Assembly (NCBI GenBank): GCA_027623675.1
Contig: JAQBVF010000010.1
Coordinates: forward strand, 35,899-99,898
Length of the DNA stretch: 64,000 nt
Source of the DNA: Chloroflexota bacterium
Lineage (GTDB): Bacteria; Chloroflexota; Dehalococcoidia; Lucifugimonadales; UBA3495
Direction of reading: 5' to 3'
Each line of letters begins with the position of its first letter. Position 1 is the first letter of the stretch. The position numbers were made by a program. Positions 39,001 to 45,000 of this stretch are shown piece by piece.

Positions 39001-42000
39001 CCCGGTCTCGGCCGGCGATGGACCCGCGGATGGGGATGACTCATTGGGCCTGCCCGAGTCGGAACCGGCCGAGGAATAGTGGACGGTCCGAACATCCAAA
39101 GACCCGAGCCGATCAAGGAATCCTGTGCGCCTCCGGGTAGATCATGGCTAAATCATGGGTGAATCACCGGAGCCAACCAGGAACAAGGACCACTGAAACT
39201 TGCTGCCGTTAGCCGACCTCCGCCGCGCCGTTAAGAACGCCCTAGCCTTCGCCTCCGCACAACAGGGCGTGGAGGAGGTTGAGGTGTTTGCCTCGGCCGG
39301 CGCCAACCTCACCGTGCGGCTGAATTACACCTCGCACATCCCCAGCAACGGGGTGGAGGAACCCAAGTCCACCCAGGGCTACGGCCTGGGCATCCGCGCC
39401 ACCTTCCGGACCCCGGACGGCCCCAAGACCGGTTTTGGCAGCGAACCCACAGACCTGTCGGTGGAGGGGGCCGCCCGCGCGCTGGACAAGGCGCGTTCCG
39501 GGGCGGTCTCCGACCCCGAATTCGTCTCCCTGCCCCGGCTGGCCGGCCTTCAAGGGCGTGCCGGCCGGCCCGGCCCCGAATCAGAAAAGACACCCCCCGC
39601 CAACTTCGACCCGGCGTTGATGCGCATCGGCGGCAAGGGTTTGGTGGATGCGGGATGGCGCATGATGTACCGTGCCCTGGACTCATTCCAGTCGTCGGAA
39701 GACCTGATGGGACTGGCAGGGTCTGCGGAACAGATGTCCCAACTGGGCTTGATCCTGGGCGGCGACGTGGTCATGCTCCAAGACCGCATGGCCATCGCGT
39801 CGACCCACATAGCCAGGGTCCAGACTGAGCAGAACACGCTCATCATGTCGTTCGCCACAGCCATGATCGAGACCCAAGCCAGCAAGGGCAGCGGCTGGTC
39901 GGTGGGCAGCCGCCTCGCCGGCTTCAACGGGGAAGCGGCCGCCGAGGCCGCCAGGAATGCCATCCGGTCCATCGGTGGCCAGCGCATACCCACCGGGAGC
40001 TACCGAGTGATCCTCGGGCCCCAGGCGGTAGCTGAGATATTGGAATGGGTGCTGATGCCCGGCCTATCCCTGGATATGTTCTTCGCGGGGGCCTCCCCCT
40101 TCATCGGCAAGCTGGGCCAGATGGTGGCCTCGGAGGATTTCAACCTCTACGACGACAGCGCCGCGCCCGGTCTGCCCAGCGCCAGGTCGATCACCGACGA
40201 GGGTCTGCCCACCGGACGCACAGAGTTGATACGCGCCGGCCAGCTCACCGGCATGCTGTCCGACTATTACAACTACCAGCGCATCCTGAACGACCCAGCC
40301 GGCCGGGAGAAGCTGGGGGTCGCCCCCCGAGACGCCCTGGAGGGCATAACCCCCCGCAGCGGGTTCCGGCCCGGCAACGGCGGCGGCCGCGATTTCGGCG
40401 CCCCGCCCGGCATCGCCTCCACCAACCTGGTCATAGATGGAGGCCGGGGCCACAGCCACAACGAACTCTTGCAGATGGTGGGCGACGGCGTATACATCGG
40501 CCGCATCTGGTACACCTATCCGGTGAACGGCGTCACGAGCGGCGACTTCAGCGGCACTATAATCGGCGATTCCTACCTGATCAAGGACGGCAAGCTGGCC
40601 GCCCCGCTCAAGCCCAACACGGTGCGCATGAACGACAACGTTCTGCGCCTGATCAACAACACCCTGGGCATCGCCGCTCAACACCGCGCCACCGTGCGCT
40701 GGTCGTCGGACCAGGTGACCTGGGCGCCCGAGATCGCCGTCGAAGGGTTCGGCCTTGAAGAGATATCAGAATACATGGAGAGCGTTTAGGCTGCCATCAG
40801 ACCAGTCAAATCAGTCCCGCAAATCGGACCCGAATATCAGGAGCAGCCCAATGGCGGAACAACATATCAAGTTCGAGAAGATGGACGGCGTGGGCATCAT
40901 CACCATGGCCCGTGAGGAAGCCCGGAACGCGCTGACCGCAGACATGATTACCCAATTGGGCGACGCCATCGAGGCCTGTAAAAAGAACGACGTACGGTCG
41001 GTGCTGCTCACCGGCGCCGGCGGCGCATTCTGCTCCGGGGCCGATGTGAAAGATTTTGTGGATGTTCTGGATGGCGACGGCCCCCAGGGGCTGCATAACC
41101 ACATCAGCGCCCTGGCCGACCTGCTGCACAAGAAGGTGGTGTTGGGCTTGCGGCGTCTGGAGAAACCGGTGGTGGCTGCGATCAACGGGGTTGCCGCTGG
41201 GGCCGGGTTCAGTCTGATGCTGGGCTGCGACCTGAGATTTGCCGCCAACAGCGCTCGGTTCCTGATGGCTTACGCCAACATCGGGGCCACGGCCGACGGT
41301 GGCTCAACCTACCTGCTGCCCCGTTTGGTTGGCTCGGGCCGGGCCATGGAGCTTTACCTGGCCAGCCAACCCATGGGAGCGCAGATGGCCCTGGAGATCG
41401 GGCTGGTCAACCAGGTGGTGGAGGATAAACAACTTTTCAGGCACGCCATGGAAACCGCGGTCCGCCTGGCCCAAGGCCCCACCCTGGCCTACGGACGCGT
41501 AAAAGCCCTCTTCGACAACTCCTGGGACAACGACATCGCAACCCAACTGGACGCCGAAACCGAGGCCCTGGCCAACAGTGGCCTCACAGCCGACTTCCAA
41601 GAGGGCGTCAAAGCCTTCACCGGCCGCCGCCAAGCTAGGTTCGAGGGCAAGTAGGGTAGCTCATTACTCCAGCTCGGCCACGGTTACGCCGTCGCCGCCG
41701 GGACCCTCGCCGTTCTGGGCCGACATGACCAATGGGTGGCCGCCCAGGTACTCGCGGATCGCCTGGCGTAGGGCGCCGGTCCCCTTGCCGTGGATCAGCC
41801 GGATGGAGCCGACGCCGTCGAGCATGGCGTTATTCAGCGCCTCGTCCACCCGCCCCAAAGCTTCGTCCACCCGCAGGCCGCGCAGGTCCAACTCGGTGCT
41901 GGGGCCCTTTCTGGGGGCACGGCTAAGGTACACGCCTTGGGATGCGGCGGCTGGGTGGCCCTCGGCCTGCTTCTCCAACTGGTACACCGGAATCTTGGCG

Positions 42001-45000
42001 CGCATGGTGCCCAGCAGCACCTCGACCCGGTCCTGGTTGTCGGCGGCGGCGATGACCTCCACCGGCTGGGCGATGCCCCGGATGTAGACCCGGTCTCCCT
42101 CTTTCAGCGCGCTCTGCCACGGGACGCGTTCGATCTCGATGGGCGCCCAGGCCGGCGAGTCCAATTGCCGCTGCACGTCTCGGACCTCTTCCCGGTTGGA
42201 TCGGATGTCCTGACGCCGCGGCGCGCTGGGCCGGGGCTCGAACCTGGGCTGGAACTCGGCGTTCTCCAGGGTGCGTTCGGCGCGGGACAGCCGGTCCAGT
42301 ATCCCGCTGATGCGGCGTTGCAGTTCCTGCCGCGATTCCTCCACCAGGTTGGCCTTGGCCGATTCCACGTCCGCCAGTTGCGCGTCCAGCTCCCGTTGCA
42401 GCCGCACCGCCTCCGACCTGGCTTCCTGGGCCTCATGCCGCAGTTCCTCCACCACCCGGCGTTCCTGTTGCAGCTCCTGCAGCAGCCCTTCGGTGGCCTG
42501 CTCCACTGGGGAGATGCCGCTTCGGGCGTCGTCGATGACCTCTTGAGGGACCCCCAAGCGTGCGGCGATGGTGAGGGCGTAGCTGCGGCCCGGCAGGCCC
42601 AGGGTGACATGGTAGGTCGGCTCCAGGGTTTGCGGGTCCAGGTCGACGCTGGCGTTGACCATGCCCGGCTGGTCCTGCACGAACCTGGCCACGCCACGGT
42701 GATGGGTGGTGCCCACCACGAACGAGCCGATCTTCTGGAAGTAGCGCAGAACGGCGCTGGCCAGGGCTGAGCCTTCCTCAGGGTCGGTGCTGGTGCCAAG
42801 CTCGTCCACCAGGACCAGCGAATGGATGGTCGCGCGGGCCATGATGCCCCTCAGGTTAGCGATGTGGGAGCTGAAAGTGGACAGGGACTGCTGGATGCTC
42901 TGCTGGTCGCCGATGTCCGCGTAGACGCCGTCCAGCCTGGGGAAGTGGGCTTCCTCGGCCGGCACATGCAGACCGGAATGGGCCATCAAGGCCAGCAGGC
43001 CCACCGTCTTCAGCGTGACGGTCTTGCCTCCGGCGTTGGGGCCGGTGATCAGCATCACGCCCTGGTCTTGGTTCAGGTCGACGCTCACCGGCACCACTTT
43101 GCCGGTGAGCAGGGGATGTCGTGCCCGAACCAGTTTCAGATTCTGGTCGGGGGCTTCCTGGTCCGACACCCACGGGGCAACCGCGTTCGTCGCCGCCGAA
43201 TAGCGGGCCTTGGCCATATCCAGGTCCAGCCGGGCGACCAGGTCCAGGGTCAACATTATGTCTTCGCCGGACAGGCCAACCATGCCGGAGAGTTGCCGCA
43301 GCACACGCTCGACCTCCCGTTCCTCGGCCAGCCTCGCCTCGCGCCAGCGGTTGCCCATGTCGATGGCCGGCATGGGCTCGATGAAAACGGTGGCGCCGGT
43401 GTCGGAAACGTCATGGACGATGCCCGGAACACGGCCCCGAAGCTCGGCTTTGATGAGCAGCACCATGCGGCCGTTGCGCTGGGTGATCAGTGGCTCCTGC
43501 ACGACCTCCGCCCGCTGCAGACGCCGCAGGTTGCGCTCCATGATCTCGTTGAGCCGGGCCTGGGCCTGGCGCGCCTCGCGGCGCAGGTTATGGAGCACCG
43601 GACTGGCGTTGTCCAGCACCTCTCCGGCCGGGCTGATGGCGCCGGATATGGCCCGCTCCAGGTCGGCGAGGTCGGGTATGCCGTCCGCGACGCCGGTTAG
43701 CAGGGGCAGGTCATCCCGGTTTCCCAGCTCGGTGGCGTCGTAACGGGCGTCGCGGAGCAGTTCCCTAACCGCGAACAGTTCTTCGCCCCGGAGCAGCCCG
43801 CCCAACAGAGCGCGTTGCAGCACTTCGCGAAAGTCCTGGTCCGGCCCGAATTCCAGCCCGCCGTCCTCCTCCTGGTACTGCCTCGCTTCCGACGTCTCCT
43901 GAAGGCGGGTGGCAATCTCCATCAGATCGCGGTTGGGGGCTAGGGCCATGGCGAGCTCGCGGCCCAGAACGGTGCGGGCGTAGCCGGCGATCTGGGCTCG
44001 GACGCGGTCGAACTCCAGCAGCGGGCCGGCAATGGCGAAACCGCCCAGGCCGCTATCCCACCCCTGGTCTTGGACACTCCCCGCCGGGTTAATCGGATCC
44101 AGTTCAGATTCTTGCAATGTTCACCAATCGATGCCCCAAACACGGCTCTCGTAGATCATGCCCCCAACGTCGTCCAGGGTGTCGCGTTTAGGGTCGCGTA
44201 TGTTTAACCGCCGTTTCAGCGTGATGTCTTTGTACTCTTCCAGGCGCGGGCAGACCTTCAGGAAGCCGTTCAGCGTGAACTTCTCGCCGCCCAGCACCAC
44301 AAATTCGAGGTCTCTCGCCAACGGCTCGAACTGGGCGCGGACGGTCTCGCACACCTTGACGTACAAACGCCGCATCTGGCCCTCCCTGACGCGGGTATAG
44401 CGCAGTTGGGACGTGCCGCCGGCGTGGTGTTTGCCTTTCACGTAGCGGGAGTCGGTCTTGGACGAAGCCAGGTTCTCCCCCCGGTACACGGCTACCGAGT
44501 ACCGGCCCAGGCGCACCAGGACCACGCCCACCAGGTACTCCTTCTCCACCAACTGCCAGAGCGGCCCCTCGTCCCAGCCGTCGTGCTGACCGCTTTCCAG
44601 CACCGGAAATGGCGGGGCAATGACCAATGCCCGATCCCCAGCCCGAAGGCCGACCAAGCCGCAGCCGCTCTCTTCCGGAGCCGCGCCCAGCTTGGACATA
44701 CGCTCCCGCCATTCGGGTGACGTGGCAGTGTCGCCAGACTTCAGGTAGATCGACGACGCAACGTCGCCATCGCCCGGCTTCCGCACATCCAGCAGATTGC
44801 GCAGCCGGTCCTTGGTGAGCCAGTCTCCGTTAAGACCGGCCGCAGGCGTGGCGATCCTGTTCCTAGCATCGGTCATGGTTTGTACGAAATTGTACCACCG
44901 CACGTTCCCCAAAGCCTGGGGGTTACCGATCTGCCTAGCGCCGCGAGACCCGTACCGGAATCTGGGCGATTATCCGCACGGTGGGCAGCCCGTCCGAGTT

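Follow-up and report, generated by a model that had tools for sequence, protein, structure and literature searches.

A Vms1-like release factor gene adjoining mutS2 in an RqcH-less class of Chloroflexota encodes a candidate factor for releasing incomplete chains after ribosome splitting

How might a bacterium without RqcH, the usual tailing factor, free an unfinished protein from a ribosome that has stalled and been split? This question is raised by two neighboring genes in a 64,000-nucleotide stretch of the genome of a Chloroflexota bacterium (hereafter the window), which encode the ATPase MutS2 and an eRF1 relative termed acVLRF1. Both open reading frames were read again from the sequence and lie where an earlier note on this DNA had placed them. 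The acVLRF1 gene (44121..44903, minus strand) encodes 260 amino acids when translated from GTG at 44903. The alternative in-frame starts are a TTG at 44912, which would lengthen the protein, and an ATG at 44876, which is possibly the true start because close relatives align only from residue 9-10. The 260-residue protein, of which this genome has a single copy, matches the Pfam families acVLRF1 (PF18859; 93.6 bits, cut-off 27.1), baeRF_family10 (46.3 bits) and eRF1_2 (36.9 bits), and its score against NCBIfam NF041024 ('acVLRF1 family peptidyl-tRNA hydrolase') is 117.6 bits, slightly below the cut-off of 125.

The MutS2 gene (41664..44117, minus strand) encodes 817 amino acids and matches TIGR01069 with 756.6 bits (cut-off 400). 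Its ABC-type ATPase domain MutS_V (residues 355-534; 42516..43055, minus strand; Pfam 123.5 bits) carries the Walker A motif GPNAGGKT, which is invariant in 35 MutS2 sequences. Toward the C terminus lie an MSSS (KOW/SH3-like) domain (residues 673-711; 41985..42101, minus strand), which scores 26.4 bits against PF20297, slightly below the cut-off of 26.8, and the only Smr domain of the whole genome (residues 743-816; 41670..41891, minus strand; Pfam 70.6 bits). The translation of the latter contains LDLRG and HGKGTG motifs, and residues R746, G747, H776, G777, G779, T780 and G781 are invariant (35 MutS2 sequences).

At the gene junction (44115..44123, minus strand), the acVLRF1 stop codon TGA (44123-44121) is followed by a 3-nt spacer, aca, and then by the MutS2 start codon TTG at 44117, exactly the spacing that the earlier note had reported. 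This TTG is the only canonical MutS2 start, because no other in-frame ATG, GTG or TTG occurs before residue 57 and the family model matches from residue 33. The same 3-nt spacing is present in L020, L023, L024 and L025, the four closest relatives whose matches reach both gene ends. The two genes indeed share one frame across the TGA, as had been pointed out, but this is a coincidence, given that relatives vary in their spacing. Since the neighbor on one side is divergent (NIPSNAP, 45044-45832, plus strand) and that on the other is convergent (enoyl-CoA hydratase, ECH, 40755-41654, plus strand), the pair forms an isolated two-gene unit.

The absence of RqcH, previously claimed for this genome, is borne out and characterizes the entire class, rather than reflecting an assembly gap. 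Specifically, none of 251 class genomes (164 genera) yielded NFACT_N, compared with 142 of 267 genomes from other classes of the phylum. The best NFACT_N match in this genome, with 20.5 bits, is an Fpg glycosylase, and NFACT-R_1 has no match there. ArfB was likewise not found in this genome, whose only two RF-1 domain matches are in frames of 361 and 362 amino acids, whereas SmpB is present and Pth is encoded (220.9 bits). Pth is cited, in passages on B. subtilis, as the release enzyme of ribosome-associated quality control (RQC). It is described as reaching the ester bond once RqcH-made alanine tailing exposes it (passages in PMC11633108). With no RqcH, this tailing-dependent route is therefore not available.

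We propose, at about an even chance of being correct, that acVLRF1 and MutS2 form an RqcH-independent ribosome-rescue module that first splits and then releases. MutS2 would sense collided ribosomes via its KOW-like and Smr domains, and its ABC-type ATPase would split the stalled ribosome to leave a 50S subunit with peptidyl-tRNA still held. For B. subtilis MutS2 this outcome is established; here it is probable by orthology. acVLRF1, a two-domain eRF1 relative built like the Vms1 core, would act after MutS2 by binding the exposed A-site side of the 50S subunit and inserting its GG-x-S-Q loop into the peptidyl-transferase center. The chain may then be freed either by hydrolysis of the ester bond, in the style of a release factor, or by cutting of the tRNA CCA end, in the style of Vms1, and, with RqcH absent from the entire class, it would carry no alanine tail. 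For acVLRF1, we infer catalysis and 50S binding, as well as which substrate it uses (50S or 70S) and the sequence of steps.

The AlphaFold model of acVLRF1 (pLDDT 91.5, pTM 0.86; pLDDT >89 from residue 31) predicts an M domain and a reduced N domain, both of eRF1 type, in a Vms1-like arrangement. The predicted N-terminal domain (residues 27-120; 44544..44825, minus strand) includes a near-invariant PPFP at residues 97-100; G82, P97, P98 and P100 are near-invariant among 111 sequences, and phmmer aligns 'PPFPV' of acVLRF1 to 'PPQPI' of aRF1 in 4af1. By VIA, model residues 29-120 align both with residues 12-140 of eRF1/aRF1 and with the core of Vms1. The remainder, as judged by VIA and Foldseek, resembles an aeRF1 M domain of RNase H fold and peptidyl-hydrolase type (residues 122-259; 44127..44540, minus strand). 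It matches aRF1 (VIA with 8hku_ARF1, Z 14.9, rmsd 2.8 over 127 residues; Foldseek E 1e-9) and eRF1 (VIA with 3j5y_A, Z 12.8, rmsd 2.9 over 127 residues). Neither the translation nor the model contains a C domain that could bind a GTPase, and acVLRF1 also lacks stop-codon motifs.

An unlikely alternative is that acVLRF1 acts first: it would occupy the A site of a stalled 70S ribosome independently of the codon and release the chain, after which MutS2 would split the emptied ribosome. An aeRF1-type factor paired with an ABC-type ATPase mirrors eRF1/ABCE1 and Pelota/ABCE1, and the structural matches include such complexes (5lzv_ii and 3jag_ii, Z 13.4-13.5; 3j15_A, Z 8.6). Moreover, the reduced N domain kept in the model could sit near the decoding center, and acVLRF1 is transcribed first in the window's clade. 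However, the opposite gene order is equally well conserved, and the two-domain geometry resembles that of Vms1 on the free 60S subunit (6r84_R; Z 10.1, rmsd 4.5, 173 residues spanning 29-258), unlike that of eRF1 on the 80S ribosome, to which both domains together fit only with an rmsd of 13-15. acVLRF1 also lacks the C domain, through which aeRF1 and Balon are described as binding EF-Tu (passages in PMC10901736), and passages in PMC10897456 describe B. subtilis MutS2 as splitting ribosomes that still carry peptidyl-tRNA.

Release after splitting would depend on the loop. Residues 158-166 read KHHAGGTSQ in the translation, matching the H-x-x-G-G-[ST]-S-Q pattern noted before, and the putative catalytic loop G162-G163-T164-S165-Q166 (44406..44420, minus strand; read directly) has the GGxSQ form, a Vms1-type GxuQ, which is the motif of the VLRF-1 clade in passages of PMC6514570. 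In the alignment to aRF1, the position of the canonical GGQ glutamine is occupied by T164. Each of the 45 loci of the window's own clade has GGTSQ. Among 143 family representatives, the GG and S of GG-x-S are invariant, and the Q is kept in 110 and replaced in 33. The loop glutamine is nevertheless not conserved throughout MutS2-linked acVLRF1 genes, for in the sister linked clade, whose order is MutS2->acVLRF1, A, S or E takes its place in 14 of 35 loci, and it is also replaced in G480, a family-level relative of the window genome (GGSSSA).

These losses show the glutamine to be dispensable in evolution. Might acVLRF1 then be a non-catalytic helper? Like Pelota/Dom34, it would occupy the A site or peptidyl-transferase center and aid MutS2 splitting, or would hold the 50S-peptidyl-tRNA complex for Pth, which the genome encodes. 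Pelota M domains match the model as well as those of release factors do (5lzw_ii, Z 12.2, rmsd 2.6 over 117 residues). We consider such a role distinctly unlikely, given the invariant GG-x-S and the retention of Q in most representatives and in the entire window clade. In bacterial release factors, the two glycines are far weightier for catalysis than the glutamine side chain, and 32 of the 143 acVLRF1 representatives carry the canonical GGQS(Q/A). By comparison, the loop is poorly conserved in aeRF1-like families judged inactive by Burroughs and Aravind (passages in PMC6514570), and Balon lacks GGQ (passages in PMC10901736).

We found 227 relatives of the window's acVLRF1 in 185,579 species genomes and examined the closest 80 loci (31-84% identity). 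In 71 of these, the immediate neighbor is MutS2 on the same strand, with 45 in the order acVLRF1->MutS2 and 26 in the order MutS2->acVLRF1, which confirms and extends the reported recurrence of the pair in both orders. In five of the nine exceptions, the contig extends <1.3 kb upstream. The flanking genes are not conserved, and thus the adjacency is more than mere synteny: NIPSNAP occurs in 15 of the 80 loci and ECH in 33, neither was found in loci L057-L097, and clustering of all ORFs from 87 loci places acVLRF1 in 81 loci, MutS2 in 76 and the next cluster in 32. In the tree, the MutS2->acVLRF1 loci form one clade (SH-aLRT 98; 24 of 26 rows linked, one at a contig edge and one unlinked), and the window's clade is linked in 6 of 6 (SH-aLRT 99). 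As a control, other aeRF1-like genes of the phylum, which are weak PF18859 matches in frames of 380-500 amino acids, lie 0.3-2.6 Mb from MutS2 in all four same-contig cases (G210, G171, G165 and G267).

It is very improbable that the adjacency is simply gene order inherited within one lineage and that acVLRF1 performs rescue alone, the role suggested by Burroughs and Aravind. Every linked locus belongs to one class, the data do not reject a single origin of linkage (AU p 0.28), the majority of acVLRF1 subfamilies are unlinked, and prokaryotic VLRF-1 proteins are described as stand-alone (passages in PMC6514570). Against this, the adjacency persists down to 31% identity, through reversal of the gene order and full replacement of the flanks, and with very tight spacing here and in the four close relatives. 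In addition, 34 of 34 members of the linked clades are in MutS2-bearing genomes, compared with a base rate of 164 of 251 in the class. The data support a real and selected association of the window's acVLRF1 clade with MutS2.

Least probable of all is a Balon-like factor that parks ribosomes in hibernation and is made together with MutS2 under stress. In the literature examined, Balon alone among bacterial aeRF1-like proteins has a demonstrated function (passages in PMC10901736), and its chains match the model clearly (8v9k_z, Z 11.7; 8rdv_B, Z 11.2). However, the rmsd is 11.6-12.4, and such a role explains no conserved operon with a collision-specific splitting ATPase. Moreover, these passages give Balon three domains with EF-Tu bound via the C domain, no NIKS and, as the earlier note had stated, no GGQ, whereas acVLRF1 has no C domain and keeps GG-x-S-Q.

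How general, then, could the proposed split-then-release module be? In an evenly drawn class sample (251 genomes, 164 genera; acVLRF1 scored at E<=1e-15), 79 genomes bear acVLRF1 and 67 have both genes, of which 25 are linked, 32 are unlinked and 10 are at contig edges; linkage is only partial, as had been cautioned. It occurs only in certain clades of a single class, and most acVLRF1 subfamilies are unlinked. Nor do the proteins depend on each other, which argues against the module: 97 of the 164 MutS2-bearing genomes have no acVLRF1 at that threshold, and 12 of the 79 acVLRF1 genomes have no MutS2. In family f23, 2 of 13 genomes carry acVLRF1 and 0 of 13 carry MutS2, and there are whole RqcH-less families of the phylum with MutS2 but without acVLRF1, such as f25 (MutS2 in 19 of 19). 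A published survey (PMC11633108, Table 1) gives mutS2 in 0 of 3,213 Actinobacteriota, the phylum for which the acVLRF1 family is named. Furthermore, Pth could perform release after drop-off.

The earlier note proposed acVLRF1 as the dedicated bacterial RQC termination factor, a terminator that passages in PMC11317155 describe as unidentified. Because its linkage is limited to particular clades of one class, acVLRF1 cannot be 'the' bacterial RQC terminator, and the many MutS2 genomes without it, the presence of Pth and the variable glutamine point the same way. What stands is its candidacy for release where RqcH is absent. No link between acVLRF1 and MutS2 was found in the literature that could be searched. 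Within these clades, acVLRF1 is a good candidate for the factor that would release unfinished proteins once ribosomes have been split.

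The acVLRF1 gene occupies positions 44121-44903 of the window on the minus strand and encodes 260 amino acids, starting with GTG at 44903 or ATG at 44876. It is followed on the same strand by a complete gene for MutS2 (41664-44117 (-), 817 aa). The junction at 44115-44123 consists of TGA, an aca spacer and TTG. That acVLRF1 stops 3 nt before the start of MutS2, as an earlier note had claimed, is borne out: no other in-frame canonical start precedes residue 57 of MutS2 and the family model matches from residue 33, so the 3-nt spacing is real. The acVLRF1 start is less certain than that of MutS2, with alignments of close relatives beginning at residue 9-10. 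The flanking genes, encoding NIPSNAP (divergent) and enoyl-CoA hydratase (ECH; convergent), are not translation-related. A read-through fusion across the in-frame TGA was considered and rejected because intergenic spacing varies in relatives, the offset between matches ranging from 3 to 302 nt. No fused acVLRF1-MutS2 forms were found at E<=1e-5 among proteins of 456-2000 aa, which is weak evidence. A complex prediction combining MutS2 residues 34-545 and 564-817 with acVLRF1 residues 27-260 scored 0.00, which amounts to no answer and is neutral on binding.

Family membership of the smaller protein is well supported by its score of 93.6 bits against the Pfam acVLRF1 model PF18859 (cut-off 27.1; residues 125-246), and a six-frame search of the genome with this model finds one copy, at 95.1 bits. 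The Pfam families baeRF_family10 and eRF1_2 match more weakly. Against the narrower NCBI model NF041024, named "acVLRF1 family peptidyl-tRNA hydrolase", the protein scores 117.6 bits, below the curated cut-off of 125; judged by its sequence, it is a divergent member of that group. The hydrolase activity is predicted, and no experimental work on the activity of bacterial acVLRF1 was found in the literature searched. At E<=0.001, an exhaustive profile-free search for the family yielded 681 cluster representatives. Aligning 111 full-length members shows G162 and G163 to be invariant, and among the near-invariant positions are S165, R168, F169, R171, R173, H159, K149, the PPFP motif at 97-100, C185 and C218. 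The two cysteines, C185 (44349-44351 (-)) and C218 (44250-44252 (-)), are conserved in at least 90% of these members.

Weak PF18859 matches (28-61 bits) also occur elsewhere in the phylum, at C4:44498-44749 of genome G142, C6:609194-609553 of genome G210 and about 27 further places. Their frames span about 270 to 500 aa, mostly 380-460, and come from other Chloroflexota classes, many of the genomes bearing RqcH. They probably represent further proteins of the aeRF1-like type, possibly similar in size to Balon.

The loop G162-G163-T164-S165-Q166 satisfies the pattern GGxSQ, and G163-T-S-Q166 within it satisfies GxuQ; passages of Burroughs and Aravind (PMC6514570) describe this loop as the pattern of the VLRF-1 clade. 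When acVLRF1 is aligned by sequence to aRF1, 'GKHKMGGQSQRRYERI' lies opposite 'GKHHAGGTSQLRYTRV', and by this alignment T164 corresponds to the classical GGQ glutamine and Q166 to the second glutamine. GG-x-S is invariant in all 143 family representatives that show the motif. At the fifth loop position, 110 of them have Q, 25 have A and 8 have S, and 32 carry classical GGQS(Q/A). The window's clade retains GGTSQ at 45 of 45 loci. The glutamine is gone from 14 of 35 loci in the clade with MutS2 upstream of acVLRF1, where the loops read GGSSAH (8 loci), GGSSSH (2), GGSSSR (2), GGSSSQ (1) and GGSSER (1). Either the side chain of the loop glutamine is dispensable, or some members of the family are noncatalytic by now. 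In bacterial release factors, the glutamine side chain has been reported not to be essential, the loop glycines mattering more.

At least five loop types are seen in the class sample (loci L098-L167), largely tracking tree clades. The unlinked acVLRF1 clades carry loops of their own: GGQSQ, which is classical GGQ; GGWSQ, seen also in the MutS2-less family f23; GGSSSG, which has no glutamine and belongs to family f11; and GGRS[QE]K, for which 9 of 13 rows come from MutS2-less genomes. The MutS2-linked type is GGSS-/GGTSQ. Two types co-occur in some genomes, such as G244.

An AlphaFold model computed on the 111-member alignment (pLDDT 91.5, pTM 0.86) has two domains that cover residues 27-259, and no C domain. 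Residues 122-259 form an aeRF1 M domain with the RNase H fold (8hku_ARF1, Z 14.9, rmsd 2.8 over 127 residues by the structure comparison VIA; Foldseek E 1e-9). Residues 29-120 align with the N domain of eRF1/aRF1 in a different orientation (Z 13-14, rmsd 13-15), with 210-219 residues aligned overall versus 127 for the M domain alone. Vms1 on the 60S subunit matches both domains as a single body (6r84_R, Z 10.1, rmsd 4.5, 173 residues), and a second Vms1 structure, 5whg, matches with Z 8.2. The Balon and Pelota matches have Z 10-12.

According to passages of the founding paper on VLRF-1 (PMC6514570), this clade no longer possesses the domain that binds stop codons and carries a short distinctive N-terminal extension instead. 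The "extension" of the window protein (residues 27-120; 44544-44825 (-)) is modelled as a compact domain that superposes on the N domain of eRF1/aRF1. Its near-invariant PPFP lies in 'PPFPV' opposite 'PPQPI' of aRF1, and the NIKS motif is absent from the acVLRF1 sequence. The predicted structure suggests that acVLRF1, unlike the founding paper's description, retains a reduced N domain.

The partner is recognised by the MutS2 equivalog model TIGR01069 (756.6 bits; cut-off 400) and carries the Pfam domains MutS_V (123.5 bits) and, at its C terminus, Smr (70.6 bits). Across 35 sequences there is no variation in its Walker A and Smr motifs. The KOW/SH3-like domain MSSS (PF20297), which serves in collision sensing, matches with 26.4 bits, which is 0.4 under its cut-off of 26.8.

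How often the two genes stand together was established from two samples. With an alignment of seven sequences as query, 227 relatives turned up among 185,579 species, each represented by one genome. The best 80 of these 227 loci are all from Dehalococcoidia/Chloroflexota assemblies, and 71 of the 80 have MutS2 directly adjacent on the same strand. acVLRF1 comes first in 45 of the 71 (38-84% identity to the window protein) and MutS2 in 26 (31-41%); in five of the nine misses the contig ends within 1.3 kb upstream. Since the seven-sequence query biases the best-80 set toward linked clades, an even sample of the class was drawn. acVLRF1 (E<=1e-15) is present in 79 of its 251 genomes, 67 of which encode MutS2. 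All but one of the 82 acVLRF1 places in this sample were fetched, and the remaining genome, G514, was judged from coordinates. The pair is linked in 25 of the 67 genomes with both genes and unlinked in 32, with 10 at contig edges, in agreement with the earlier estimate of linkage in one fifth to one third of such genomes. In G480, a genome of the window's family whose acVLRF1 loop is GGSSSA, two small ORFs lie between the genes (L150:3332-4291). One matches an IS200-like transposase (28.9 bits), and the 1.3-kb gap is thus explained by a fragment of such a transposase.

Across the best 80 loci, the window's own neighbours NIPSNAP and ECH recur in 15 and 33 cases, and neither was found in loci L057-L097. 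All-against-all clustering of the ORFs from 87 loci returns acVLRF1 at 81 and MutS2 at 76, the next cluster having 32. No third conserved partner was found in these 87 loci, the neighbours being metabolic (ECH, DinB_2, Rieske oxygenase, DUF2283 and hydrolases). A maximum-likelihood tree was built from 88 sequences, comprising two samples and six best-80 rows; a 112-aa fragment, a locus without a match and G514 were dropped. The clade with MutS2 upstream of acVLRF1 (SH-aLRT 98) has 24 of 26 rows linked, the window's clade (SH-aLRT 99) has 6 of 6, and linkage extends to a third, small pair of rows. As a control, the weakly matching aeRF1-like genes (frames of 380-500 aa) are separated from MutS2 by 0.3-2.6 Mb in each of the four cases with both on one contig.

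Each gene also occurs without the other. MutS2 is found in 164 of the 251 class genomes and, above cut-off, in 248 of 301 phylum genomes. RqcH-less families of the phylum such as f25 have MutS2 (19/19) without acVLRF1, family f23 has acVLRF1 in 2 of 13 genomes and MutS2 in none of the 13, and Table 1 of PMC11633108 gives mutS2 in 0 of 3,213 Actinobacteriota genomes surveyed. For the FCB group (Fibrobacterota, Chlorobiota and Bacteroidota), whose Bacteroidota have a VLRF-1 family, that table counts 1,781 genomes with mutS2 and 404 with rqcH out of 1,956. The core activity of the family is therefore independent of MutS2, and vice versa, and the linked clades seem to represent a specialisation rather than a universal pathway. 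The proposal that acVLRF1 is "the dedicated bacterial RQC termination factor" cannot stand as worded, with acVLRF1 lacking from 97 of the 164 class genomes that have MutS2 and MutS2 lacking from 12 of the 79 that have acVLRF1. At 20 loci from 8 families, an HMM search found no aeRF1-like gene as a substitute beside MutS2 in acVLRF1-less genomes, and no neighbour there had an obvious connection with chain release; SelA, LigB/AMMECR1 and MgsA were the ones that recurred.

In f87, f92 and f109, three families of the class without acVLRF1, a recurring same-strand row of SelA and then LigB or LigB+AMMECR1 ends in MutS2, and its frames overlap or abut (L172:777-5430, L173:2992-7657, L184:82-5367; also L171 and L181). 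SelA, selenocysteine synthase, is another translation-related gene near MutS2.

The window's genome is 91.4% complete with 5.7% contamination. Its only Smr domain is the one within MutS2. It encodes Pth (220.9 bits) and SmpB (194.9 bits; C18:23098-23520). No tmRNA gene was found by aragorn, and the best matches to Rfam RF00023 are tRNA-sized and below threshold; because SmpB is encoded, the missing tmRNA is probably an assembly gap. Two RF-1 domain matches, in frames of 361 and 362 aa, indicate RF1 and RF2 and no ArfB. ArfB/ICT1 resembles the proposed factor as a codon-independent, single-protein peptidyl-tRNA hydrolase in ribosome rescue, but its fold, the bacterial RF-1 GGQ domain, is unrelated.

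RqcH, the tailing factor, was tracked by its domains NFACT_N and NFACT-R_1. The latter has no match in the window's genome. The best and sole NFACT_N-like match, at 20.5 bits, is the Fpg/MutM glycosylase at C8:707-1564 (locus L001), with Fapy_DNA_glyco, H2TH and zinc finger domains. That an Fpg protein is matched accords with its known relationship to NFACT-N, to which a passage of PMC6514570 refers. NFACT_N is present in 142 of the 301 genomes of a phylum sample, all 142 among the 267 from other classes (0/34 in the window's class), and it was found in none of the 251 genomes, from 164 genera, of the even class sample. Unpublished genomes are counted in both samples: G145, G038 and G227 for the phylum, G514 for the class. 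The absence of RqcH from this genome, asserted earlier, is thus confirmed and extends to the class samples, which makes MutS2 without a tailing factor a lineage trait and no artefact of a single assembly. Canonical bacterial RQC requires RqcH, and neither this genome, at its 91.4% completeness, nor the class provides it.

We favour, at roughly even confidence, the reading that the pair constitutes a split-then-release module. MutS2 would split the collided ribosome, and acVLRF1 would then enter the peptidyl-transferase centre of the freed 50S subunit, without codon reading or a GTPase, and free the chain via hydrolysis or cutting of the CCA end. Support for this from the literature is indirect. 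Passages of PMC11317155 state that no dedicated bacterial RQC terminator is known and that Vms1 acts on large-subunit peptidyl-tRNA by cutting the CCA end of the tRNA. In B. subtilis, Pth reaches the ester bond after the alanine tail exposes it, according to passages of PMC11633108. With RqcH missing (0/251), no alanine tailing is expected in the class, and the route through Pth after tailing is closed there. The B. subtilis system (MutS2, RqcH, RqcP/YlmH and Pth) is alike in its orthologous MutS2 with ATPase and Smr parts and a putative KOW-like one, and Pth is present here too. It differs in that release is proposed here to be carried out by an aeRF1-type protein encoded beside mutS2, instead of Pth.

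The closest eukaryotic parallel is Vms1/ANKZF1 (eVLRF-1), which passages of PMC6514570 assign, within the aeRF1 superfamily, to the same clade. Its structure can be superposed on the predicted two-domain core, the GxuQ loop is common to both, and the action proposed here would likewise be post-splitting and GTPase-free. The differences are that acVLRF1 has 260 aa in which Pfam finds nothing but release-factor-domain families, that the accessory parts of Vms1 described in the same passages (Rei1-type zinc finger, ankyrin, VIM/Cdc48-binding) are missing, and that it is encoded in an operon with the splitting enzyme in a lineage without Rqc2/RqcH. The window protein also agrees with the definition of the acVLRF-1 family that Burroughs and Aravind gave in 2019 (PMC6514570), being above the Pfam cut-off, with a GGxSQ loop and from a Chloroflexota source. 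In passages of that paper, prokaryotic VLRF-1 is presented as stand-alone and as not depending on other RQC components, whereas here a subclade is tied to MutS2. More tentatively, the acVLRF1 clade may be the first in bacteria to match Vms1 not just in fold but in function, as a dedicated, GTPase-independent factor releasing chains from the 50S-peptidyl-tRNA that MutS2 makes.

Four rival explanations need to be weighed against split-then-release. In the first, acVLRF1 would release the chain on the 70S ribosome ahead of splitting, in the manner of eRF1 and ABCE1. Like eRF1 or Pelota with ABCE1, the pair joins an aeRF1-type factor to an ABC-type subunit-separating ATPase, with the closest structural agreement in the M domain (Z 12-15). 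However, MutS2 is not ABCE1, and acVLRF1 has no C domain, NIKS motif or GTPase partner. In the second, acVLRF1 would be a noncatalytic helper in the style of Pelota, a role with which the glutamine-less loops could be reconciled. Pelota/Dom34 matches by its M domain alone (Z 10-12), has three domains and lacks a conserved GG-Q in its M-domain loop, unlike the invariant GG-x-S of the acVLRF1 family. In the third, acVLRF1 would park ribosomes, as does the bacterial hibernation factor Balon, which is also a bacterial aeRF1-like protein of related fold (Z 11-12). Passages of PMC10901736 describe Balon as having three domains, binding EF-Tu via its C domain and lacking GGQ, the last as the earlier note had said, whereas acVLRF1 is modelled with two domains and its GG-x-S-Q loop is conserved. 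Finally, acVLRF1 and MutS2 might have no functional link, a view compatible with inheritance from one ancestral arrangement (a single origin of linkage, with the linked clades held together with two nested rows, is not rejected; AU p 0.28), but even given a single origin the pair has persisted through a swap of gene order and to about 30% identity.

The link between MutS2 and acVLRF1 was not found in print in the literature searched, supplements aside. MutS2 and Smr do not occur in the main text of PMC6514570, and neither VLRF, aeRF and Vms1 nor gene neighbourhoods are mentioned in PMC10897456, its supplements aside. What is new here is a Vms1-type factor wired to a bacterial splitting enzyme.

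Termination is the least understood step of bacterial RQC. As passages on B. subtilis describe, Pth, a general enzyme, releases chains there after RqcH-dependent tailing. Many bacteria, here a whole class, have MutS2 without RqcH, and the operon offers a concrete candidate for clearing the blocked 50S subunit. It also provides independent genomic support for a ribosomal over a DNA-repair role of MutS2 in this lineage. If the proposed role of acVLRF1 is true, it would define a tail-less, RqcH-independent RQC pathway and point to a coupling of VLRF-1 proteins to ribosome splitting that predates the recruitment of one of them as Vms1 by eukaryotes. The pairing also bears on how the release step of eukaryotic RQC originated.
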